Shown piece after piece: positions 2,020 through 53,510 of a stretch of DNA of 64,000 bases. How positions within the stretch are numbered: position 1 is the first letter of the stretch; each line of letters starts with the position of its first letter. Source of the DNA: an uncultured Lachnospiraceae bacterium (GTDB lineage: Bacteria; Bacillota; Clostridia; Lachnospirales; Lachnospiraceae); assembly GCA_948964755.1 (NCBI GenBank), contig CAREEU010000007.1, forward strand, positions 35,417 to 99,416. Reading direction: 5' to 3'. The translations under genes and the position numbers were made by a program. Below the pieces are notes generated by a model. It made no database searches. It saw only the letters and a list, made by a program, of their open reading frames with translations, and was not told where the DNA came from.

Positions 2020-2180
2020 TAAAAACAAAAAACACATAACAAACACGGAACACTGGAATAAATAAATAAAATAAAAGAAAAGAAAAAAAAATCATAAACC
2101 AACCAATAAAAAAATATATCCAGCAAACACCCAAAATCAATCTAATTTCATAACAAAAAACAACAAAAGGTAAAAACAAA

Positions 2181-2441
2181 ACATAAATTGTGCCATAATA
2201 CAGCCAGAGTGCATTAGGGGTACACGGTGACTTCGTAGGAAAGTTAGAGGCTCTTAGACTTCTGTCGATCCATTAGGATTTTTTGCCATTCTCGAATGGC
2301 AAAAAAAGGGGTGTGTTTAGCCCGCTGTACGGGCGAATTGCACCCCGATCCGTCCGGTTAGATACACCCAACACCAGAAGTCTTAGAGCCTCTTACTTTC
2401 CGAAGAGCGGAACCGTGTACCCCTAATGCACTCTGGCGTCC
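2181..2441 (+). repeat. long palindromic element family 1 (LPE-1) copy A; A-type core, alpha-type 5' flank; preceded by an A-rich low-complexity tract at 2030-2200
   Basis: Conserved ends GCCAGAG/CTCTGGCGTCC. Long stem of about 65 bp encloses the core ttttttgccattctcgaatggcaaaaaaaggggtgtgtttagcccgctgtacgggcgaattgcacccc..ccgtccgg. Family has 9 copies in the window. Confidence 0.85.
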
Positions 2442-2465
2442 CCTCCGAAATCCTCTTTCCCCCTC

Positions 2466-3959
2466 TTAAATCCTCCCATACCGCTTTGCAATACCCAAAA
2501 TCTCTTCCTGCAATTCCTTTGACAAATCCTCTTCCGTCAAACGCCACCTCCAGTTCGTCCCCACTGTAGAAGGCGTATTAATCCGACATGTATTATCATA
2601 CCCAAGATAATCCTGCATTGGAATAATACAAGTCTTTGCATTACTTCGCATCACCAAAGCAATAAACGCCTTATACAACAACTCCTTCGGCGTATAAAGA
2701 TCACAAAGATACTCCCTTGCCATCTGCTGCTCTGCCTTTGAAATCGACTCAAACCACCCGCAGATTGTCTCATTATCATGAGTCCCTGTATAAGCCACAC
2801 TATTTTCCATATAATTATGAGGCAGATAGTCATTTGCCGATCCAGAATCCCTAGAATCAAAAGCAAACTCCAACACCTTCATTCCCGGAAATCCACTGTC
2901 TGCAACCAACTGCCGCACCGAATCCGTAACATACCCCAAATCCTCTGCGATTACCTCATGCCATCCAAGCCGCTGCTCTACACAGCGAAACAGCTCAATC
3001 CCAGGACCTTTTTCCCAATGCCCAATCTTCGCCGATTCCGCACCATAAGGAATCGAATAATACTCATCAAATCCCCGAAAATGATCAATCCGCACAACAT
3101 CATACAGCCGAAAACAATAAGCCAGTCTTGAAACCCACCATTCATATCCAGTCTGCTTATGATACTCCCAGCGATACAAAGGATTCCCCCAAAGCTGCCC
3201 GTCTGCCGAAAACCCATCCGGCGGACATCCTGCTACCGCACAAGGTACATTCTGTTCATCTAACTGGAACAATTCTGGATGTGCCCAAGTATCCGCACTG
3301 TCCATTGCCACATAGATAGGAATATCCCCAATCAAGGCAATCCCCTTCTGATTGGCATACGCCTTTAACCGCCTCCACTGTTCAAAAAACTTAAACTGCA
3401 TATACTGCTGAAATTCTATCTCAAAATATAACTCCCTGCGATAATAATCCATCGCAAATCCCCAACGCAGCCGAATATCCTCTGCCCACTGCGTCCATGC
3501 TACGCCCTCAAACCGATCCTTAACCGCCATAAACAACGCATAGTCCGAAAGCCACCACTTATTTTCCTCTACAAACCGCAGATAATCCGCATTTTCACTA
3601 ACCTTGCTGCGTTCATACGCCTTTCGAAGCAAAGGATACCGATTTTGATAGAGTTTCTCATAATCAATATCTTCTAACTGACTTCCAAAATCCGCCTCTT
3701 CACACTCCTCCTCTGTCAAAACCCCTTCCTCTATCAGTGCCTCCAAACTAATAAAATAAGGATTTCCTGCAAAAGTAGAAAATGACTGATAAGGAGAATC
3801 TCCATAACTGGTAGGTCCAAGCGGCAAAATCTGCCAATAAGTCTGTCCGGCTTCTTTCAGCCAGTCTATAAAATCATATGCACTCTTTGAAAAACAGCCA
3901 ATCCCATAGCGGGAAGGCAAACTGGTAATGGGAAGTAAAATACCTGCTGAACGTTTCAT
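2466..3959 (-). CDS. malQ: 4-alpha-glucanotransferase (amylomaltase, GH77)
   Basis: 497 aa. N-terminus ILLPITSLPSRYGIGCF..AGQTYWQILPLGPT is a classic MalQ signature. Confidence 0.9.
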   Translation of the reverse strand: MKRSAGILLPITSLPSRYGIGCFSKSAYDFIDWLKEAGQTYWQILPLGPTSYGDSPYQSFSTFAGNPYFISLEALIEEGVLTEEECEEADFGSQLEDIDYEKLYQNRYPLLRKAYERSKVSENADYLRFVEENKWWLSDYALFMAVKDRFEGVAWTQWAEDIRLRWGFAMDYYRRELYFEIEFQQYMQFKFFEQWRRLKAYANQKGIALIGDIPIYVAMDSADTWAHPELFQLDEQNVPCAVAGCPPDGFSADGQLWGNPLYRWEYHKQTGYEWWVSRLAYCFRLYDVVRIDHFRGFDEYYSIPYGAESAKIGHWEKGPGIELFRCVEQRLGWHEVIAEDLGYVTDSVRQLVADSGFPGMKVLEFAFDSRDSGSANDYLPHNYMENSVAYTGTHDNETICGWFESISKAEQQMAREYLCDLYTPKELLYKAFIALVMRSNAKTCIIPMQDYLGYDNTCRINTPSTVGTNWRWRLTEEDLSKELQEEILGIAKRYGRI

Positions 3960-4841
3960 CTATCTTTCTCCTTTCATCTTTTGCATGATTTCTTCCTCTG
4001 TCTCTATCAAAACTCCAAAATGATCCGATACCTTTGGTTCTCTTTCTCCATTAAACAGCACCTTAGAATACGAAATCGGCATCTCTTTATTACACCAAAT
4101 CACATCCATTCTCATTCCCTCCGGTCTGTCCTGCTCCTGAGAAAATTCTCTCCATCCATCAATACAGCCCTCTACTGTAATCCCGCTGTCCTTTTGCCCT
4201 GCCAGATTATAAGTATCCAGCCATCCATCCCCACTGATACAATCATAACCCTGTCCACGAAATTCTGCCGGACTGTTAAAGTCCCCCATCAGCCAGATCA
4301 CAGATTCCTCCCCTTTCTGCTGCAGCCGAGTATTCAGCCGTTTCCACTGTGCCAAAAAAGGTTCTTCTTCATCTTCCCACCAGCCCATATGAACCGTATA
4401 GAACCAGTGATCACTCTTCTCTGTCCGCACGCCTAATACCCGGCGTGTTTTCCAATTTTTATAGTCCTGACAACCACTGATAAAAAAAGATTCCATCTCG
4501 GTTAGTTTTTGATTAATAGCCAATACGGCGATTCCCTCATCATAGATATCATATCCTATCTTTGCCGAGATCCAAGTCCAAGAACAGGGAATTCCCGCCT
4601 GATGCAGCCGAAATGCTGCCTGTGCAGCATGGTTATCCTGACGAATCGGCACGGCATCCGGGCAGGGAACCCAGCCCTGCAGCAGCTTTGCATCTGCAAA
4701 AGGTGCTGACAGAGACTGATTCACTTCCTGCAAAGCGATCAAATCGGGTTTTTCTTTCTGAATAACAGAAAGAAAGAAATCGAGCTTCTGCAGATAATTC
4801 TCTTCTTGAAGACTGTGTGTATTTAAAGTCAACAGCTTCAT
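3960..4841 (-). CDS. endonuclease/exonuclease/phosphatase (EEP) family protein, probable MapP-like maltose-6'-phosphate phosphatase
   Basis: 293 aa with EEP-type N-terminus LLTLNTHS..PDLIALQEVNQ. Sits between a glucose/maltose-family PTS permease and malQ, as MapP does next to MalT in enterococci. Confidence 0.55.
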   Translation of the reverse strand: MKLLTLNTHSLQEENYLQKLDFFLSVIQKEKPDLIALQEVNQSLSAPFADAKLLQGWVPCPDAVPIRQDNHAAQAAFRLHQAGIPCSWTWISAKIGYDIYDEGIAVLAINQKLTEMESFFISGCQDYKNWKTRRVLGVRTEKSDHWFYTVHMGWWEDEEEPFLAQWKRLNTRLQQKGEESVIWLMGDFNSPAEFRGQGYDCISGDGWLDTYNLAGQKDSGITVEGCIDGWREFSQEQDRPEGMRMDVIWCNKEMPISYSKVLFNGEREPKVSDHFGVLIETEEEIMQKMKGER

Positions 4842-8531: not shown

Positions 8532-8560
8532 AATAGAGCTGAACCAGACACCGGACGTAT

Positions 8561-8692
8561 GAAGCAGAGAGGGTTTCTTTGCTGGGGCCGTTTGCACTAA
8601 GGCTTCCTCGCAGCGGACACATAAGGCACGAAAATACCGTGCCTAAGTGCCGGCGGGAAGCAATACCCCTGCAAAGAAACCCTCTCTGCTCC
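8561..8692 (+). repeat. element-3 repeat copy 1 (conserved ~90-nt core flanked by a copy-specific inverted stem)
   Basis: Core tggggccgtttgcactaaggcttcctcgcagcggacacataaggcacgaaaataccgtgcctaagtgccggcgggaagcaatacccctgca. Flanks gcagagagggtttctttgc / gcaaagaaaccctctctgc. Confidence 0.8.
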
Positions 8693-8836
8693 ATACTGTA
8701 TATTCCTAAATTCAAGTGTTCAAATTCGTCCTTCTGCATTTTCCCTATTGGGAACACAAACCAAATTTCCACGCTCTTAAAGTCATAGTAAAATGAAAGA
8801 AATTAAGTCATAAAACAAAAACGGAGAAAAGAAAAT

Positions 8837-9289
8837 ATGAAAAAGTACACATATATCACTTTAAGGCAAAAGCCACAGATAAAAGATACAGCAGCCGAAT
8901 GGTTCCATTGTAAATGGGGCGTTCCCAAAGAAGCTTATCTGGAATGTATGAACGCTTATCTTAACAACGAAACGGAATATGGCTGGTATCTTTGCTTAGA
9001 TGAGAAAAAAATAATAGGAGGTCTTGGTGTAATTGAAAATGACTTCCACAATAGAAAAGATCTTGTTCCTAATGTCTGTGCAGTCTATACAGAAAAAGAC
9101 TACCGATGTAGGGGGATAGCCGGACACTTGCTTAATATGGTGGTAGAGGATTTGAAATCCAAGTCCATAACGCCTATCTATTTACTTACTGATCATACCA
9201 GCTTCTATGAGAAATATGGCTGGGAATTCTTATATATGGTTCAAGGAGATGGAGAACCCCATATGTCAAGAATGTATATTCACAAATAA
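8837..9289 (+). CDS. GNAT family N-acetyltransferase
   Basis: 150 aa with GNAT fold motifs (ILGGLGV..CRGIAGHLL). Bracketed by inverted element-3 copies. Confidence 0.8.
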   Translation: MKKYTYITLRQKPQIKDTAAEWFHCKWGVPKEAYLECMNAYLNNETEYGWYLCLDEKKIIGGLGVIENDFHNRKDLVPNVCAVYTEKDYRCRGIAGHLLNMVVEDLKSKSITPIYLLTDHTSFYEKYGWEFLYMVQGDGEPHMSRMYIHK

Positions 9290-9318
9290 TTTCTAGCTTT
9301 CCGGTCGGAATACACAGC

Positions 9319-9456
9319 AGGCAGGAGAGAGGGAATCTTTGCAGGGGTATTGCTTCCCGCCGGCACTTAGGTGCTGTTCTTTAGCACCTTATGTGTCCGC
9401 TGCGAAGAAGCCTTAGTGCAAACGGCCCCAGCAAAGAATCCCTCTCTCCTGCCTGC
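9319..9456 (-). repeat. element-3 repeat copy 2 (inverted relative to copy 1)
   Basis: Reverse complement of the same core. Flanks gcaggcaggagagagggaatctttgc / gcaaagaatccctctctcctgcctgc. Confidence 0.8.
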
Positions 9457-9485
9457 GTCCTCCCCCCTCCTATTTATGTCCTTTC

Positions 9486-11390: not shown

Positions 11391-11512
11391 AATCAAATCG
11401 GATATTCGCAGTCCGCTTTGCTACTTGCTCATAACCTCATCAAGGAAGTCCCAACCCACCGCTTTCGCCTTGGCGGCTTAGAAGCGGGGAACTTCCTTGA
11501 TAAGATTAAAAG
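11391..11512 (+). repeat. SHE-2 copy (single GC-hairpin module)
   Basis: aatcaaatcggatattcgcagtccgctttgctacttgctcataacctcat caaggaagtccc..gggaacttccttg ataagattaaaag. Overlaps the stop codon of the 11506 gene. Confidence 0.75.
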
Positions 11513-21417: not shown

Positions 21418-21549
21418 CCATATCCCTTCCTTTCTTTTGTTCTTCACAACTCGACTACTCCCACTAAAACCAAACATATCTCCTACCCAGTATACCATAA
21501 AAATCCTAATTTTAAATCCTCCAAAACATATCAAATTTTATCCCAAAGG

Positions 21550-21808
21550 GGACGCCAGAGAGTATTAAAAGCACGCTGTTCCGCTCTCCAGAAAACAGAA
21601 ACTCTAAGACTTCTGAATTTCAATGCATCCAACCGGACGGACCGGCACGCAATTCGCCTCTGCAGGAGGCTAAGCACGTGCCTTTTTCGGGCACAAGTGC
21701 CCGAAAATCCTACAGAATCGACAGAAGTCTAAGAGTTTCTAGTTTTCCTCCGAAGTCACAGCGTACTTTTAATACTCTCTGGCTATATAATTCCACAATT
21801 TACGTTTC
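21550..21808 (-). repeat. LPE-1 copy B (B-type core, alpha flank), head-to-head with copy C
   Basis: Core variant cggcacgcaattcgcctctgcaggaggctaagcacgtgcctttttcgggcacaagtgcccgaaaa. Ends ggacgccagag..ctctggct plus the flank tatataattccacaatttacgtttc. Confidence 0.85.
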
Positions 21809-22245
21809 TTTTCTTTCACGGTTGTATGGTTCTTCAATTTGCGTTTTTTCTCCTTGGTGGTTGTATGATTCTGCAATTTACGTTTCTTCCCCTTTATGGT
21901 TATATGACTCTGCAATTTATGTTTCTCCTTAGCGGTTGTATGATTCTGCAATTTACGTTTCTTCCCCTTTATGGTTATATGACTCTGCAATTTATGTTTC
22001 TCCTTAGCGGTTGTATGATTCTGCAATTTACATTTCTTCTCTTTCATGGTTGTATAATTCTGCAATTTATGTTTCTTCTTGGCGGTTGTATGATTCCGCA
22101 ATTTACGTTTCTTCTCTTTCATGGTTGTATAATTCTGCAATTTATGTTTCTTCCCCTTTGTGATTATATGACTCTGCAATTTATATTTCTTCTTGGCGGT
22201 TGTATGATTCCGCAATTTACGTTTCTTTTTCTTTGCAGATGTATA
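21795..22245. repeat. tandem array, about 12 units of 36-39 bp (AATTTAYGTTTCTTnnnCTTnnnGGTTGTATGATTCTGC), derived from the LPE-1 alpha flank
   Basis: Units alternate between two subtypes and are near-identical to one another. The first unit is continuous with the flank of copy B. Confidence 0.8.
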
Positions 22246-22365
22246 ATTTTATTTTGATAAACTCTATTCCAATAAAAGTATCTATAATAAACTCTAATCA
22301 GCTAAATCCAAAAACAAAATTATACTAACAGCAAAGATAACCTCTGCTATTGGCAAAAAATAAGA

Positions 22366-22634
22366 ACATAAATTGCGGGAATACCAGCCAGAGGGAGAAA
22401 GTAAAATGGTATCGCAGTGACTTCGGAGGAAAGTTAGAAGGTCTTAGACTTCTGTCGATTTTGTAGGATTTTCGGGCACTTGTGCCCGAAAAAGGCACGT
22501 GTTTAGCCTCCTGCAGAGGCGAATTGCGTGCCGGTCCGTCCGGTTGGATACACCGAAATTCAGAAGTCTTAGACCTTCTTACTTTCCGTAGAGCGGAACT
22601 GCGATACCATTTTACTTTCTCCCTCTGGCGTCCT
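22366..22634 (+). repeat. LPE-1 copy C (B-type core, alpha flank)
   Basis: acataaattgcgggaataccagccagag..ctctggcgtcc. Variable stem gggagaaagtaaaatggtatcgcag pairs with its own 3' arm. Confidence 0.85.
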
Positions 22635-22661
22635 CCCCCACCATCCTCCCCCACCATCTGC

Positions 22662-29349: not shown

Positions 29350-31113
29350 ATGAGAAAACATACGCTAGAAACCCGCTGGACACAGCAAATTACAGAAACA
29401 AATGCCTGGCAGGAATACCCTCGCCCTACTATGGTTCGCTCCTCTTATATAAACCTAAATGGTTACTGGGATTACAAAATCAGCAGACGTCACACCTTTC
29501 CCTCCGCCTATAGCGGAAAAATCCTAGTTCCGTTCTCTCCCGAATCCAAACTATCCGGTGTACAGCGTCAGTTAAAACCAAATGAATATCTCTGGTACCA
29601 CAGAACCCTTACCCCTTTATCATTTTCCAAACAAGAACGCCTCTATCTGCACTTTGGTGCAGTAGACCAATCCTGCACCATTTACCTCAACCGCCGGAAA
29701 GTCGGTTCCCATCAGGGAGGCTATCTTCCTTTTTCGATTGACATTACGGAAGCGATGCGGCACGCTTCACCCAAAAAGCCTCTAGACTTATTCGTATGTG
29801 TAACCGATCCCAGTGACACCTCCTATCACAGCCGGGGCAAACAAAAGCTCCGCAACGGCGGAATGTTTTATACTGCACAAAGCGGAATCTGGCAGACCGT
29901 CTGGATGGAACTTGTACCGGAAAATTTTATCCGCTATGTCAAATTCACTCCTGACTACGATAAAAAAGAAGTAAAAGTAAAGATTGCTACAGAAAAAACC
30001 TGTCCTGCTGTATTACATCTAAAATTAGAATCCGGCGATCTCTCTTATTCTTTTACAAGCAACCAAAGCTTTCGGATTCCGATTCGGGAATTTCACGCAT
30101 GGAGTCCAGAGCATCCCTATCTGTACCAAGTAAAAATCACTACAAAGACAGACTGTATCTCCAGTTACTTTGCCCTAAGAAAATGTGAAATTCAAACCGA
30201 TTCAAACGGAATCCGAAAAATCTTTCTTAATAATCGCCCCTATCCGCAGATTGGCATCCTCGATCAGGGATACTGGCCAGACGGACTCTATACCCCGCCC
30301 TGTGAAGAAGCGATTTTATTTGATCTTTTGGCAATAAAAAAATTGGGATTTAATATGATCCGCAAACATGTAAAAATCGAATCGGAACGCTGGTACTATC
30401 ACTGTGATCGGCTTGGTATTCTAGTCTGGCAGGATATGGTAAATGGCGGCTCACGCTACCACCGCTGGTTTGTTACCTACTTTGCCACTCTCTTTAACTG
30501 CCTGAATATCCGAATATTTGATCGTCCTCATGCTTTATTTTCACGCAGACAAAAAGAAAGCCGAACCGAATGGACCAAAGAAGTCGTATCCACTGTCCGC
30601 ACCTTATATCCTCATCCCTGCATTGTATGCTGGGTTCCATTTAACGAAGGATGGGGACAGTTTCGTGCACTTTCAGCAGCAGAATTGATTCGCAGTCTAG
30701 ACAAAGAGCGGCTGATCGATCACGCCAGCGGCTGGTTTGATCAGGGAGGCGGCGATATAAAAAGTATTCACTACTATTTCTTCTCCCTGATTCTAAAACC
30801 GGAACGGCGTGCACTCGCTCTGACCGAATTCGGCGGCTACACTTGGCATGTAAAAAAACACAGCTATTCCTCCAAAAAATTTGGCTATCGAACTTTTTAC
30901 AGCAAAAATTCCCTGTCAAAAGGCTATGCCAAATTATTAGAAGACCTGATTTTTCCTGCATTTCAAAACGGACTTTCCGCCTCCGTCTATACCCAGCTTT
31001 CCGATGTAGAAGAGGAACTAAACGGCATCTTTACCTATGACAGAAAAATTCTGAAATTAGACAAAAAAACGGTTACCGAATGGAACCAAAAAATAAAAAA
31101 TCTAATCGAGTAG
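29350..31113 (+). CDS. glycoside hydrolase family 2 protein (beta-glucuronidase/beta-galactosidase-like)
   Basis: 587 aa. GH2 sugar-binding domain (..HQGGYLPFSIDIT..) and TIM-barrel region with WVPFNEGWG. Confidence 0.75.
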   Translation: MRKHTLETRWTQQITETNAWQEYPRPTMVRSSYINLNGYWDYKISRRHTFPSAYSGKILVPFSPESKLSGVQRQLKPNEYLWYHRTLTPLSFSKQERLYLHFGAVDQSCTIYLNRRKVGSHQGGYLPFSIDITEAMRHASPKKPLDLFVCVTDPSDTSYHSRGKQKLRNGGMFYTAQSGIWQTVWMELVPENFIRYVKFTPDYDKKEVKVKIATEKTCPAVLHLKLESGDLSYSFTSNQSFRIPIREFHAWSPEHPYLYQVKITTKTDCISSYFALRKCEIQTDSNGIRKIFLNNRPYPQIGILDQGYWPDGLYTPPCEEAILFDLLAIKKLGFNMIRKHVKIESERWYYHCDRLGILVWQDMVNGGSRYHRWFVTYFATLFNCLNIRIFDRPHALFSRRQKESRTEWTKEVVSTVRTLYPHPCIVCWVPFNEGWGQFRALSAAELIRSLDKERLIDHASGWFDQGGGDIKSIHYYFFSLILKPERRALALTEFGGYTWHVKKHSYSSKKFGYRTFYSKNSLSKGYAKLLEDLIFPAFQNGLSASVYTQLSDVEEELNGIFTYDRKILKLDKKTVTEWNQKIKNLIE

Positions 31114-31255
31114 GAAAGGTTACTTTCCCTACTCGCTGTCTCAGGCGTCCGTCAGCTCCGCTGACCTATTTCATTAAAACATTCATGTGCATAAAAAGGG
31201 ACTGCTGCAAAATAATAAATTCCTATCCTATTTTGCAGCAGCCCCTTTTCCACTA
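31107..31255 (+). repeat. module-5 repeat (gagtaggg hairpin + gtcagc..gctgac hairpin) fused to a bidirectional terminator between convergent genes
   Basis: atcgagtaggaaaggttactttccctactcgctg..gtcagctccgctgac.. then gggactgctgcaaaata..tattttgcagcagcccc flanked by A and T tracts. The GH2 stop codon lies inside the first hairpin. Confidence 0.65.
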
Positions 31256-32541: not shown

Positions 32542-33165
32542 CTAATTCTTTTCATATATCTGAATCGTTGCATCAATCGAATCTACCACACTGACAATAT
32601 GATATTTTAATACAAACAATGCATTTGCCTCTTCTGGATATTTTTGCTTTACTTTTCGAAGAAGCGGAAGGATATATTGCCTGGTTTCTTCAATATATGC
32701 CTTTAATTTTTCCTTTGAAAATGCCCCCGCCATACACGATACATTATGACAGCGATCAATTAGTTTCGTAATAGACGCTTCCCGATTTTCTAAAAGTTCA
32801 TTATAATAACGATTCCTTGCAATCTCTTTTGTCTCACCTTCCATAACCCGAAATGTCATCAATTCTACACCTCGCCGCACAATATCATTTACTGGAAGTT
32901 CCTCCAAACTAATTCCGCAGTCTTCACAGACATCATGCAGTAAAATCGTTGCAATTATATTATCTTCCTTAATTCCAATACTAAGTGCATTGCACGCCAT
33001 AGTAAGAGGATGAATAATATAGGGTTCTCCTCCCTTACGCATCTGTCCCTCGTGTTTCTCTCTTGCAAAAGATAGTGCCTTTAATGTCTGTGTCATCTCT
33101 GCCCCAGAAGCATAACCTCGAATATAAGTATACATTTTATCTGGATAAAATACGGTTCTTTCCAT
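32542..33165 (-). CDS. HD-domain protein resembling the (p)ppGpp hydrolase domain of RelA/SpoT (small alarmone hydrolase-like)
   Basis: [25 protein letters not shown] metal-binding HD motif. 207 aa, stand-alone. Confidence 0.6.
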
Positions 33166-33287
33166 CTTCTATTTCCTTTATCGTTTTTATTATTGTTAAT
33201 AGGTTAAAACAATTACTCTACCAAAATCACTTTTTATAGTTTAGCATATTTTTTTTATATATTCAATATTCGATTTCAACTCCAAGG

Positions 33288-33546
33288 GGACGCCAGAGTG
33301 TTTTAGGGAGACGTGTTCCGCTCTCCAGAAAGCAGAAGTTCTAAGACTTCTGAATTTCCGTGCATCCCACCGGACGGACCGGCACGCAATTCGCCTCTGC
33401 AGGAGGCTAAACACGTGCCTTTTTCGGGCACAAGTGCCCGAAAATCCTACAGAATCGACAGAAGTCTAAGAACTTCTGCTTTCCTCCGAAGTCACAGCGT
33501 CTCCCTAAAGCACTCTGGCTGTATTGTCTCACAATTTACGTTTCCT
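33288..33546 (-). repeat. LPE-1 copy D (B-type core, alpha flank), head-to-head with copy E
   Basis: ggacgccagagtgttttagggagacgtg..core..cagcgtctccctaaagcactctggct gtattgtctcacaatttacgtttc. Confidence 0.85.
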
Positions 33547-33674
33547 TTCTCGATCCTCTATGAATACAGGAATCAACTTTTATGTTTTCTTTTCTCGATC
33601 CTCTATGGATACATAAATCAATTTCCATGTTTTCCTTTTTCGAACCTCTATGGATACAGGAATCAAATAAAAAC
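33547..33674. repeat. tandem array, about 3 units of ~46 bp, reiterating the alpha-flank-like sequence between LPE-1 copies D and E
   Basis: ctttctcgatcctctatgaatacaggaatcaacttttatgttttc repeated with variation. Confidence 0.7.
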
Positions 33675-33943
33675 TTATCGGCAGGAAAAAACAGCCAGAG
33701 TGGGGAAAAGATTCCTTGCCACTGTGACTTCGGAAAAAGTTAGAAAGTCTTATGCTTTTGTCGATCCACTAGGATTTTTTGCCATTCTCGAATGGCAAAA
33801 AAAGGGGTGTGTTTAGCCCGCTGTACGGGCGAATTGCACCCCGGTCCGTCCGGCTGGATGTATCTACATTCAAAAGCATTAGACTTTCTTACTTTTTGGA
33901 GAGCGGAACAGTGGCAAGGAATCTTTTCCCCACTCTAGCGTCC
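33675..33943 (+). repeat. LPE-1 copy E (A-type core, beta flank)
   Basis: tatcggcaggaaaaaacagccagag tggggaaaagattccttgccactg..core..cagtggcaaggaatcttttcccca ctctagcgtcc. Confidence 0.85.
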
Positions 33944-33989
33944 CCCCGCCCACACTATAACACCAAAACCTTTACACCCTATCCCCCTT

Positions 33990-37862: not shown

Positions 37863-37950
37863 TATACCATCGAGTAGGAAAATTTCCTCTCCTTACTCGC
37901 TGCACCAAGCGTCCATCAGCTCCGCTAACATCGTTCCCTTGGACGCCCGC
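37863..37950 (+). repeat. module-5 repeat copy
   Basis: atcgagtaggaaaatttcctctccttactcgctg..catcagctccgctaac..cgttcccttg..catacataaaaaaa. Same order and orientation as the copies at 31107 and 49320. Confidence 0.65.
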
Positions 37951-37954
37951 ATAC

Positions 37955-38100
37955 ATAAAAAAATGCAGACACGCAAAAAGCATATCTGCACCGTTCTTCC
38001 GCAAATGATGTCCCTACGTTGGCATTATCCAAATCAGGTTTTAAGGGTAAAAGCCTCACATGCTTACTCTCAGCCTATTCTAATAAGCTCCCCATATATT
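37955..38100 (-). ncRNA. TPP riboswitch (THI element) with terminator-type expression platform
   Basis: Minus-strand sequence ggggagc..aggctgagag..acccttaaaacctgatttggataatgccaacgtagggaca matches the TPP aptamer consensus (CUGAGA, ACCUGAUCUGGAUAAUGCCAGCGUAGGGAA). It is followed by the hairpin gcagatatgc/gcgtgtctgc and a T7 run. Confidence 0.75.
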
Positions 38101-38159
38101 TCTATTATAACCTCTTTTTAAAAAAACACAATCCCCTTTTTCCAACAAAATCCTTTAAC

Positions 38160-38334
38160 CCCTCCCAACACCATACCTCATTTGAACCTCTATTTTTTAC
38201 TGAAATTATTCGAACCAAGTCCAATCAAATCCAACACCATACCTCATTTGAACTCCTATCTTTTACTGAAATTGGTCCAACCAAGTCCAATCAAATCCAA
38301 CATCGTACCTCATTTGAGCCTCTATCTTTTACTC
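38160..38334. repeat. tandem array, about 3 units of ~62 bp, immediately 5' of LPE-1 copy F
   Basis: tccaacaccatacctcatttgaacctctattttttactgaaattattcgaaccaagtccaatcaaa repeated with variation. Confidence 0.7.
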
Positions 38335-38603
38335 TATCGGCAGGATAAATCAGCCAGAACAAAGAAGCAATTTCTTGCTGACGTGACTTCGGAGAAAAGT
38401 TAGAAAGTCTTACGCTTTTGTCGATCCACTAGGATTTTTTGCCATTCCCGAATGGCAAAAAAAGGGGTGTGTTTAGCCCGCTGCACGGGCGAATTGCACC
38501 CCGGTCCGTCCGGCTGGATGCATCAAAATTCAAAAGCGTTAGACTTTCTTACTTTTCGGAGAGCGGAACGTCAGCAAGAAATTGCTTCTTTGTTCTAGCG
38601 TCC
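38335..38603 (+). repeat. LPE-1 copy F (A-type core, beta flank)
   Basis: tatcggcaggataaatcagccagaac aaagaagcaatttcttgctgacg..core..cgtcagcaagaaattgcttctttg ttctagcgtcc. Confidence 0.85.
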
Positions 38604-38635
38604 CCCCACCCCCATCCAATCATGAAAAAATCCCC

Positions 38636-48892: not shown

Positions 48893-49158
48893 GGACGCCA
48901 GAGTATGGCATTACAGTACTGTTCCGCTCTACAGAAAGTAAGAAGCTCTAAGACTTCTGAATTTAGATGCATCCAACCGGACGGACCGGGGTGCAATTCG
49001 CCCGTGCTGCGGGCTAAACACACCCCTTTTTTTGCCATTCAAGAATGGCAAAAAATCCTAATGAATCGACAGAAGTCTAAAAGCTTCTAACTTTCCTCCG
49101 AAGTCACAGTACTGCAATGCCATACTCTGGCTGTCTTTTTCCACAATATAGGTATTCT
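48893..49158 (-). repeat. LPE-1 copy H (A-type core, alpha-like flank)
   Basis: ggacgccagag tatggcattacagtactg..core (tttttttgccattcaagaatggcaaaaaa)..cagtactgcaatgccata ctctggctg tctttttccacaatataggtattc. Confidence 0.85.
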
Positions 49159-49177
49159 TTATTTCTCTTTTTTTGTT

Positions 49178-49290: not shown

Positions 49291-49319
49291 TTTGTTATGT
49301 TCTTTCTATTTTTATAATC

Positions 49320-49445
49320 GAGTAGGGAAGGCTGCCTCCTCTACTCGCCGTGCTAAATGTCTGTCAGTTCTGCTGACATCGTTCCTTGAGATATCTGTGT
49401 ACATAAAAAAATTCCCTGTAAACATTTCGTCTACAGAGAACGCCC
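49320..49445 (+). repeat. module-5 repeat copy (contains the tRNA-Leu terminator on its minus strand)
   Basis: atcgagtagggaaggctgcctcctctactcgcc..gtcagttctgctgac..cgttccttg..tacataaaaaaa..ctgtaaacatttcgtctacag. Confidence 0.65.
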
Positions 49446-49455
49446 CTGCCAAGAG

Positions 49456-49538
49456 TGCCGCAGGCCGGACTTGAACCGGCACGAGGTCGCCCCCGCTAGA
49501 TTTTGAGTCTAGTGCGTCTGCCATTCCGCCACTGCGGC
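49456..49538 (-). tRNA. tRNA-Leu (anticodon CAA), class II with long variable arm
   Basis: Minus strand GCCGCAGTGGCGGAATGGCAGACGCACTAGACTCAAAATCTAGCGGGGGCGACCTCGTGCCGGTTCAAGTCCGGCCTGCGGCA. 7-bp acceptor, anticodon loop cuCAAaa, T-arm GGTTCAAGTCC. CCA is not encoded. Confidence 0.8.
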
Positions 49539-52971: not shown

Positions 52972-53109
52972 ACTCCTAAACTACATCCTTCCTAATTCAA
53001 AATCCCATCTCTATCCACACACCAAAAAATATCATACCACTCCTCATTCCACCAAACCACCCCAAAATTCCCTCCCATTCCCACCTGAATAAAAAATAAA
53101 AATCAAATC

Positions 53110-53376
53110 TATCGCCAGAAAGAACCAGCTGGAGTTTGGAAGCCCTTTCTCTATGCAGTGACTTCGGAGAAAAGTTAGAAAGTCTTATGCCTCTGTCGAT
53201 CTCCTAGGATTTTTGCCATCTTCTGATGGCAAAAAAGGGGTGTGTTTAGCCCGCTGCACGGGCGAATTGCACCCCGGTCCGTCCGGTTGGATATATTTTC
53301 ATTCAGAGGCATTAGACTTTCTTACTTTTCGGAGAGCGGAACAGCATAGAGAAAGGGCTTCCAAACTCCAGCGTCC
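53110..53376 (+). repeat. LPE-1 copy I (A-type core with gccatc/gatggc hairpin variant, beta-like flank)
   Basis: atcgccagaaagaaccagctggag tttggaagccctttctctatgcag..core (tttgccatcttctgatggcaaaa)..ctgcatagagaaagggcttccaaa ctccagcgtcc. Confidence 0.85.
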
Positions 53377-53510
53377 TCTACACCATCCCCCAGCTTTTCC
53401 ATCCTAATATCCACACATCATCCCCCAACTTTCCCATCTCAATATTCACACCATCCCCCCAACTTTCCCATCTCAGTATCCACACCATTCCCATTCCCCT
53501 CAACCTTCAC
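53377..53510. repeat. tandem array, about 3 units of ~37 bp, immediately 3' of LPE-1 copy I
   Basis: catcccccaactttcccatctcaatattcacac repeated with variation. Confidence 0.65.

Follow-up and report, generated by a model that had tools for sequence, protein, structure and literature searches.

LPE-1, a high-copy intergenic repeat with a covarying multi-hairpin fold in a Lachnospiraceae bacterium of the mouse gut

The stretch of DNA analysed here, called the window, is 64 kb of contig CAREEU010000007.1 from a Lachnospiraceae bacterium of the mouse gut. It carries nine copies (A to I) of a non-coding repeat, LPE-1, which are flanked by unrelated housekeeping genes. Copies B and C, with a tandem array between them, are situated between an FAD oxidoreductase gene and an M23 peptidase gene (Table 1). 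The copies were located by repeat finding, by a nine-way alignment whose mean column identity is 77%, and by a profile search run at maximum sensitivity. The profile search returned exactly nine full-length copies with E values from 1e-79 to 1e-89 and no additional degenerate copies in the window. All nine are mutually homologous in the alignment. A preliminary description of this DNA had listed nine copies with positions and strands, and the list is correct.

To this we added a genome sample of about 0.86 Mb, consisting of blocks which match an exact 21-base core pattern of the element; the matches listed are a lower bound. At least 118 blocks in the genome collection matched, nearly all from the Lachnospiraceae metagenome-assembled genome (MAG) MGBC128194 and a few from a second Lachnospiraceae MAG, CBFFYP01. 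One MGBC128194 contig is 100% identical to positions 2305-4546 of the window, so the window and this MAG come from the same organism. With at least 183 profile matches in the 118 blocks and the nine in the window, the copy number is at least 192, and the extrapolation to hundreds of copies per genome made from the window is borne out. Among the matches listed there are 80 distinct full-length copies. Many of the contigs break off inside a copy of LPE-1.

Anatomy of LPE-1 and covariation of its stems

Read from the outside inwards, LPE-1 starts with an upstream box of approximately 25-55 nt, followed by the closing stem, P1, which is composed of a clamp (GCCAGAG/CUCUGGC) and a copy-specific duplex. 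This duplex is either 17 nt or 23 nt long, which divides the copies into a short and a long class. P1 amounts to 24-30 bp, of which 95% are Watson-Crick pairs. Next comes a purine-rich, invariant sequence GUGACUUCGGAGG opposite GGAGAGCGGAAC, then a second stem, P2, of about 24 bp, and finally a three-hairpin junction with CCGGUCCGUCCGG, in which hairpin H1 stands by itself and hairpin H3 is nested in H2. The 3' arms lead out to an unpaired GUCC and a tail. Single copies are predicted to fold into one long rod with a minimum free energy as RNA of -141 to -151 kcal/mol (z -16 to -17 relative to dinucleotide shuffles). The long stem of about 65 bp in the preliminary description is thus made up of P1, the purine-rich non-canonical stretch and P2. 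The ends that it gave as common to all copies are not identical throughout: copy I has GCTGGAG...CTCCAGC, and copies E, F and G have CTCTAGC, where position 3 is a C.A mismatch. Beyond these ends, the conserved part of the element reaches some 25-55 nt 5' of GCCAGAG and includes the tail after GCGTCC.

The compensatory variants described for the three hairpins, including the third variant of H1 in copy I (GCCATC/GATGGC), are all present in the alignments. They had been taken as two variants of the whole core. The hairpin variants are real, but they assort independently among the copies and should be seen as exchangeable modules, not as two whole-core haplotypes. The loop of H1 is UCUCGA, UCUG or UU, and that of H3 is CUGUA or CUGCA in all 77 aligned copies. 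In CBFFYP01 and at locus L072 of MGBC128194 there are variants in which H1 and H3 are much longer and the clamps are compensated, e.g., GCCGGAUU/AAUCCGGC. In the purine-rich stretch, GUGAC/GGAAC and GGA/GGA could form tandem sheared G.A pairs, and this potential makes the asymmetric internal loop a candidate protein-binding site.

Covariation was analysed in 45 long-class copies, using five measures, 500 shuffles and controls in which the alignment was slid by 1-3 columns. Of the 88 pairs in the consensus fold, 43 have changed on both sides. Over all cells of the alignment 98.8% are paired, compared to 86.9% in shuffled and 43-50% in slid alignments; cells changed on both sides number 446, compared to 99 and 25-83, respectively. 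On each of the five measures the observed value lies beyond all 500 shuffles. These results support the earlier proposal that selection acts on the fold over the primary sequence. The identity of the variable part of P1 between copies is only 59-60%, with up to five pair types per position, and yet 98.1% of it is paired (70.8% when shuffled). For comparison, the unpaired junction loop is 66% identical and the rest of the core 88%. The 80 distinct copies have 79 distinct P1 arms, i.e., nearly every copy has a private stem sequence.

The fold also has a preferred strand. In 76 of 80 copies the given strand, i.e., the orientation of each copy in Table 1, gives a better fold than the complement. 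Variable pairs of the G.U type number 52 and those of the A.C type 21, and two adjacent G.U pairs in H2 are fixed. The bias fits the orientation of the model for the RNA family TwoAYGGAY (RF01731) in Rfam, to which we return below.

The explanation we favour, with a probability of about one half, is that LPE-1 is a non-autonomous family resembling the REP/BIME elements, in which the single-strand fold is under selection at each locus, most likely as RNA of the given strand.

Arrangement of the copies and the question of mobility

At the DNA level the family behaves like REP/BIME elements: it comprises hundreds of extragenic copies, it forms head-to-head pairs, it has truncated and core-deleted derivatives, its hairpin modules are exchanged, its occupancy beside an orthologous gene differs between related species and it has no transposase as neighbour. 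Among the matches listed, 45 pairs of copies less than 1.5 kb apart are head to head, and no other arrangement accounts for more than nine; the neighbours that are not head to head are mostly split or self-palindromic matches. By class, 15 pairs are long-long, 11 short-long and 8 long-short; none is short-short, and the median spacer is 186 nt. The spacers often contain tandem repeats of the upstream box; every unit of the array between B and C repeats the upstream box of copy B (GAAACGTAAATTGCAG on the minus strand). It was considered whether the pairs are recent inverted duplications, and this was rejected, since the similarity of partners does not exceed that of random copies (0.856 and 0.848, p = 0.25). 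Open reading frames (ORFs) within long spacers code for an esterase and a helix-turn-helix (HTH) protein.

Some copies have stutter duplications of the 3' end. At L110, L078, L107, L047 and L005 of the sample, and at 22631-22658 of the window, the last 13-30 nt (…CTCTAGCGTCC) or the tail are repeated in tandem just downstream; in the tail of copy C a 13-nt unit, TCCTCCCCCACCA, is present in 2.2 repeats. The 3'-end repeats mirror the upstream-box arrays, as if both ends were prone to slippage. Among the derivatives (L114 2117-2250 and L102 2302-2385), the one at L114 joins parts of the outer stem without the core.

One orthologous gene could be compared between the two MAGs (97% identical in amino acids, 89% in nucleotides). 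In both it retains a promoter and a terminator of its own; one MAG has a pair of elements past the terminator and the other a single element before the promoter, and no occupied position is shared. For the FAD oxidoreductase next to copy B the nearest non-self homologue is 76% identical and not syntenic, and contigs of the same species break at the repeat.

A repeat which has inverted sequences conserved at its ends (GCCAGAG/CTCTGGC), a high copy number, truncated copies, stutter duplications at both ends and a mosaic of hairpin variants indicating recombination between copies, and which causes assembly breaks, could be an ordinary miniature inverted-repeat transposable element (MITE) or foldback element with subfamilies. 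The hairpin would then be a long terminal inverted repeat, and the covariation would stem from descent and gene conversion. The preliminary description had pointed to target-site duplications as the mark of such an element. For lengths of 3-9 nt there is no excess over shuffled partner flanks at any tested boundary, and this negative result sets LPE-1 apart from the MITEs; nor was a related transposase found in the sample. The aligned long-class copies have a nearest-neighbour identity with a median of 89% and a maximum of 95%, which shows that there has been no recent burst of copying. Gene conversion of terminal repeats is furthermore at variance with the covariation of the inner hairpins, which are not terminal repeats, with the five pair types and intact pairing of P1, with the strand bias and with the lack of similarity between pair partners. 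We consider an ordinary MITE distinctly improbable.

The statement that no reverse transcriptase, transposase or integrase gene lies next to any window copy proved right. Among 624 ORFs near copies in the sample there is no multi-copy transposase, and a tblastn search of the 860 kb with approximate query sequences of IS200 TnpA, IS608 TnpA and YafM gave no Y1 or RAYT homologue below E = 0.7. With these results and the spacer ORFs named above, an autonomous element adjoining LPE-1 was rejected. An origin in phages or plasmids was rejected as well: blastn found no match in either, the exact core pattern is absent from viral contigs, and a loose split pattern gave only chance matches in viral and metagenome contigs, none of which was confirmed by the profile.

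The sample does encode three small tyrosine recombinases of 196-201 aa (PF00589, catalytic domain only). Two of the genes are next to genes for CsrA-family proteins (PF02599, 63 and 61 bits), and between the third and the 5' end of an LPE-1 copy there are 170 nt. With more than 5600 homologues, this type of recombinase is widespread in Clostridia, including Lachnospiraceae.

These genes are of interest for the view that the fold is used as single-stranded DNA, as a substrate for a trans-acting HUH or tyrosine recombinase during replication in the manner of REPINs, IS200/IS605 or integron attC sites. The covariation would in that case reflect selection for transposability, not a host RNA function. 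Copy C folds strongly with DNA parameters also (-88.8 kcal/mol, z -17). G.T wobble is the most stable mismatch in DNA, so the strand bias is equally expected there and the sequence does not tell whether the folded strand is RNA or single-stranded DNA. Many copies, their inverted pairing and the lack of a transposase beside them form the pattern known from REPIN/RAYT systems, where a single enzyme gene is located elsewhere, and Y1-type single-strand transposition leaves no target-site duplication. Against this view stand the failure to find Y1 or RAYT homologues in the 860 kb and the lack of near-identical copies, among the aligned long-class copies, as a sign of recent activity; a recombinase next to one copy is expected by chance because the element density is high; and the core matches a family modelled as RNA, with tails that resemble transcription signals. 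We therefore hold the single-stranded DNA view to be possible, if rather unlikely.

A more speculative idea, which we regard as improbable, is that LPE-1 is mobile or switchable, is recognised by its structure and has a new partner acting in trans. It comes in two versions. In a REPIN-like version the small tyrosine recombinase and/or the adjacent CsrA-family protein could recognise the folded strand and spread LPE-1; the two kinds of gene are neighbours at two loci, and the third recombinase gene adjoins an element. In the other version the head-to-head pairs could be invertible boundary switches, with 250-bp inverted repeats around upstream-box arrays.

Gene boundaries, putative transcription signals and other features of the window

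The two P1 classes have different positions relative to genes. Among the matches listed, long-class copies are tail to tail with a convergent gene in 35 cases (median distance 57 nt from the stop codon) and upstream of a co-directional gene in 13; for the short class the numbers are 7 and 22 (Fisher p = 4.5e-5). The tails of long copies, and of short copies in tail-to-tail position, are rich in C (41-44% over 40 nt) and poor in G (4-6%). Where a short copy precedes a co-directional gene, it has TCTTTGGGA and then a T-rich sequence. On the given strand neither a sigma-70 promoter nor an intrinsic terminator was found. Read on the opposite strand, P1 runs straight into TGTYTTTTCC (in most copies 5-8 of 10 nt are T), and this combination of a stable stem and a U-tract is that of a putative intrinsic terminator. 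Of the 42 tail-to-tail copies, 30 are separated from the stop codon by less than 94 nt that contain no other terminator, and where the gap is larger the gene has a terminator of its own in 7 of 12 cases.

These figures, together with a P1 that is nearly perfect on both strands, could mean that LPE-1 is mainly a cis element serving the host, a bidirectional terminator or insulator between transcription units in which the TwoAYGGAY-like core is a passenger. It should be noted that the fixed as well as the variable G.U pairs favour the other strand, that a terminator has no use for invariant asymmetric loops and three covarying inner hairpins, and that about half of all copies face the start and not the end of a gene. 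The orthologous gene described above keeps its own terminator with the element beyond it. For these reasons we find this explanation unlikely. In the explanation we favour, the terminator-like strand would be one part of the element.

The variable segment of P1 was also considered as a guide sequence. When 80 arms were compared to the 860 kb with blastn-short, the matches outside the elements were at chance level (16-18 nt with one mismatch, E >= 0.03), and the idea was rejected.

Table 1. Positions of the LPE-1 copies, their arrays and neighbouring features in the window, and of recombinase loci in the sample (locus named).
Feature	Position	Strand	Hairpin	Class and signals	Neighbour or remark
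Copy A	2172-2448	+	2203-2441	short P1; C-rich tail	tail to tail with 4-alpha-glucanotransferase gene, stop codon at 2466
Copy B	21544-21814	-	21550-21783	short P1; TTTGGGA/T-rich tail	likely start of FAD oxidoreductase gene about 130 nt downstream
Copy B upstream box	21784-21814	-		AAACGTAAATTGTGG	
Promoter-like site	21516-21489	-			between copy B and FAD oxidoreductase gene
Array between B and C	21796-22227			period 39/36 nt (75-nt super-unit), about 11 copies	
Copy C	22357-22640	+	22387-22633	long P1; C-rich tail	stop codon of convergent M23 peptidase gene 28 nt away
Copy C, P1 5' arm	22387-22416	+		GCCAGAG clamp and 23-nt copy-specific segment	partner 22600-22629
Copy C, invariant sequence	22417-22429	+		GUGACUUCGGAGG	opposite CCGUAGAGCGGAAC (22586-22599)
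Copy C, RF01731 match	22422-22594	+		75.1 bits, E 1.6e-12	contains P2, H1 (22469-22492), H2 (22494-22501/22525-22532), H3 (22506-22520) and CCGGUCCGUCCGG
Copy C, 3' end	22630-22658	+		unpaired GUCC, then C-rich, G-poor tail	
Copy D	33282-33550	-	33288-33519	short P1	upstream of HD-domain gene 32542-33165
Array between D and E	33541-33666			45 nt x 2.8	repeats long-class upstream box CCTCTATGGAT..GAATCAA
Copy E	33665-33951	+	33694-33943	long P1; C-rich tail	convergent thiC stop 46 nt away
Array before F	38165-38333			66 nt x 2.6	extends into copy F upstream box
Copy F	38328-38610	+	38353-38603	long P1; C-rich tail	convergent NAPRTase gene stop 32 nt away
Copy G	42972-43245	+	42991-43238	long P1; C-rich tail	convergent PilM/FtsA-like gene stop 57 nt away
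Copy H	48885-49162	-	48893-49131	short P1	upstream of zf-HC2 gene 48441-48776
Copy H, RF01731 match	48927-49102	-		68.2 bits	
Copy I	53099-53382	+	53128-53376	long P1; compensated clamp, third H1 variant	convergent M32 carboxypeptidase gene stop 143 nt away
CsrA-family gene, L096	774-1049	-			next to recombinase gene
Recombinase gene, L096	1204-1782	+			next to CsrA-family gene
CsrA-family/recombinase locus, L014	412-726 and 818-1423	- and -			two neighbouring genes
Recombinase gene, L051	4684-5274	+			near 5' end of an LPE-1 copy
Vault-like protein gene	40461-42899	-		812 aa	adjoins copy G
Second structured repeat	1855-2019, 11400-11511, 40182-40346, 63816-63887			about 160 nt, three hairpins	
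Third repeat family, D10	31103-31197, 37867-37961, 49315-49409			perfect hairpin CGAGTAGG...CCTACTCG	
Inverted repeats, about 154 nt	8551-8706 and 9307-9460			86% complementary	flank GNAT acetyltransferase ORF 8837-9289
Third copy of the 154-nt repeat	63160-63312				near window end

Other features in the window deserve mention. The protein encoded next to copy G matches the shoulder domain of the Major Vault Protein (PF11978) with 80 bits and a Vault repeat (PF17795) with 30 bits, which is unusual for Lachnospiraceae; its closeness to LPE-1 is probably a coincidence given the element density. The second structured repeat (-87.9 kcal/mol, z -10.5), a multi-copy intergenic family which often lies beside LPE-1 copies in the MAG, shows a sub-threshold likeness to Clostridiales-1 RNA (17 bits, with a threshold of 48). 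One D10 copy is found between a TPP riboswitch (37994-38104, minus strand) and a thiazole kinase gene, and another one just downstream of a tRNA (49456-49538).

Relation to TwoAYGGAY and interpretation

In a permissive Rfam scan copies C and H exceed the RF01731 gathering score of 43 bits by 25-32 bits. A scan of the window in the default gathering mode reported none of the nine copies, from which it follows that they belong to a subfamily distant in sequence which is overlooked by routine annotation. TwoAYGGAY was found in human gut sequences, Clostridiales and gamma-proteobacteria, and was rated as probably RNA and not cis-regulatory; its P1 was noted in the supplement as often very large (e.g., 24 bp), and Psychromonas ingrahamii is represented in the alignment by several loci (Weinberg et al., 2010; PMC2864571). 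As LPE-1 agrees with the family in model score and in its large P1, it is filed here as a divergent TwoAYGGAY subfamily with a core of about 175 nt. The two have in common a long closing stem, then a purine-rich non-canonical stretch, then hairpins, and they occur in gut Clostridiales in several copies per genome. The terminal AYGGAY loops are absent from the 77 aligned copies, where H1 and H3 carry the other loops given above, so that the feature which gave the family its name is missing from LPE-1.

Our literature search found no functional study of TwoAYGGAY. Gardner and Eldai (2015) proposed that the two AYGGAY loops of TwoAYGGAY are bound by CsrA, and they noted that the stem has tandem G.A pairs. 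On this model LPE-1 copies would be genes for trans-acting small RNAs that titrate a CsrA-family protein, like the sponges CsrB and RsmZ. The genome encodes at least two CsrA-family proteins, and each copy has two conserved GGAU motifs, UAGGAU and UUGGAU, both confined to the junction. CsrA binding through AYGGAY loops was rejected since these loops do not exist here, and the hairpin loops of LPE-1 contain no GGA; the other GGA triplets are within the structured purine-rich helix. Signals that would mark a small-RNA gene, a promoter or a terminator, are missing, and hundreds of gene copies would be without precedent for a sponge RNA. We think a CsrA sponge is very unlikely.

LPE-1 appears to work most like REP/BIME/REPIN elements, while it has its ancestry or architecture in common with TwoAYGGAY. 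The REP/BIME/REPIN elements of proteobacteria are known as stabilisers or terminators of mRNA. As in LPE-1, they are extragenic, present in hundreds of copies, arranged as inverted pairs of two subtypes around a central motif, hairpin-forming, located at gene ends and without an adjacent transposase. They differ in that REP palindromes are 20-40 nt, compared to an LPE-1 unit of about 250 nt with a multi-hairpin core; the host of LPE-1 is a Firmicute, with no RAYT found in 860 kb; and the private stems leave LPE-1 without a master sequence. The RNA-folding bacterial MITEs (Correia/CREE, RUP, BOX, ERIC and bcr1), which can supply promoters, terminators and RNA hairpins, are likewise small, non-coding, multi-copy and intergenic with inverted ends. 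In contrast to these, LPE-1 has no target-site duplication, its stems covary copy by copy, and the invariance of its internal loops suggests that a folded single strand is recognised. To our knowledge it has no parent insertion sequence.

Thus, the element class has been catalogued and its large P1 was noted in 2010. What is new is the extreme copy number, the private but always paired stem segment of each copy, the head-to-head layout with upstream-box arrays, the two P1 classes with opposite gene-boundary preferences and the loss of the AYGGAY loops. Hundreds of copies, head-to-head pairs, two P1 length classes, conserved upstream boxes with tandem arrays, and tails have not been described for TwoAYGGAY.

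The mechanism we suggest for the REP/BIME-like family with a selected fold is as follows. Each copy would be situated between transcription units. The given strand would be transcribed into a rod-shaped RNA, which ends in a C-rich, G-poor tail suited to Rho or in a U-rich tail. The other strand, with P1 and TGTYTTTTCC, would act as terminator of the convergent gene where no other terminator exists. A protein would recognise the fold at its asymmetric internal loop and junction, which are both invariant in sequence and probably do bind one.

Several observations count against this explanation. Canonical -35/-10 promoters upstream of the copies are not found beyond chance, and sigma-70 promoters were rejected on this ground; the only promoter candidates, an extended -10-like TGnGACAAT and a TAAATT box, occur in some copies of the short class. 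The RF01731 model does not report copies B, D and E even at E <= 1, which we take to be filter losses, and the family assignment thus rests on copies C and H and on the homology of all nine. Within P1 alone the strand bias is modest (58 pairs of the G.U type and 36 of the A.C type), and the bias does not prove RNA, as G.T wobble is tolerated in single-stranded DNA. The counts are made over copies that are not phylogenetically independent. Finally, with no mobilising enzyme found in the sample, no target-site duplication and no aligned long-class copies more than 95% identical, the case for mobility is indirect.

A single genome with hundreds of diverged copies offers far more covariation data than the original seed alignment of TwoAYGGAY. 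Each copy of LPE-1 keeps the fold independently, and strand use, invariant loops and the position of the copies relative to promoters and terminators can be tested in one organism. Repeats of this type are probably under-counted in gut Firmicutes because default Rfam annotation misses the subfamily. If selection of the fold benefits the host, transcription-unit boundaries in this bacterium would carry RNA modules in large number; if it benefits the element, LPE-1 would be a Firmicute counterpart of the REPINs. A structure-recognised mobile element or switch would, if true, be the first mechanism for the TwoAYGGAY family.

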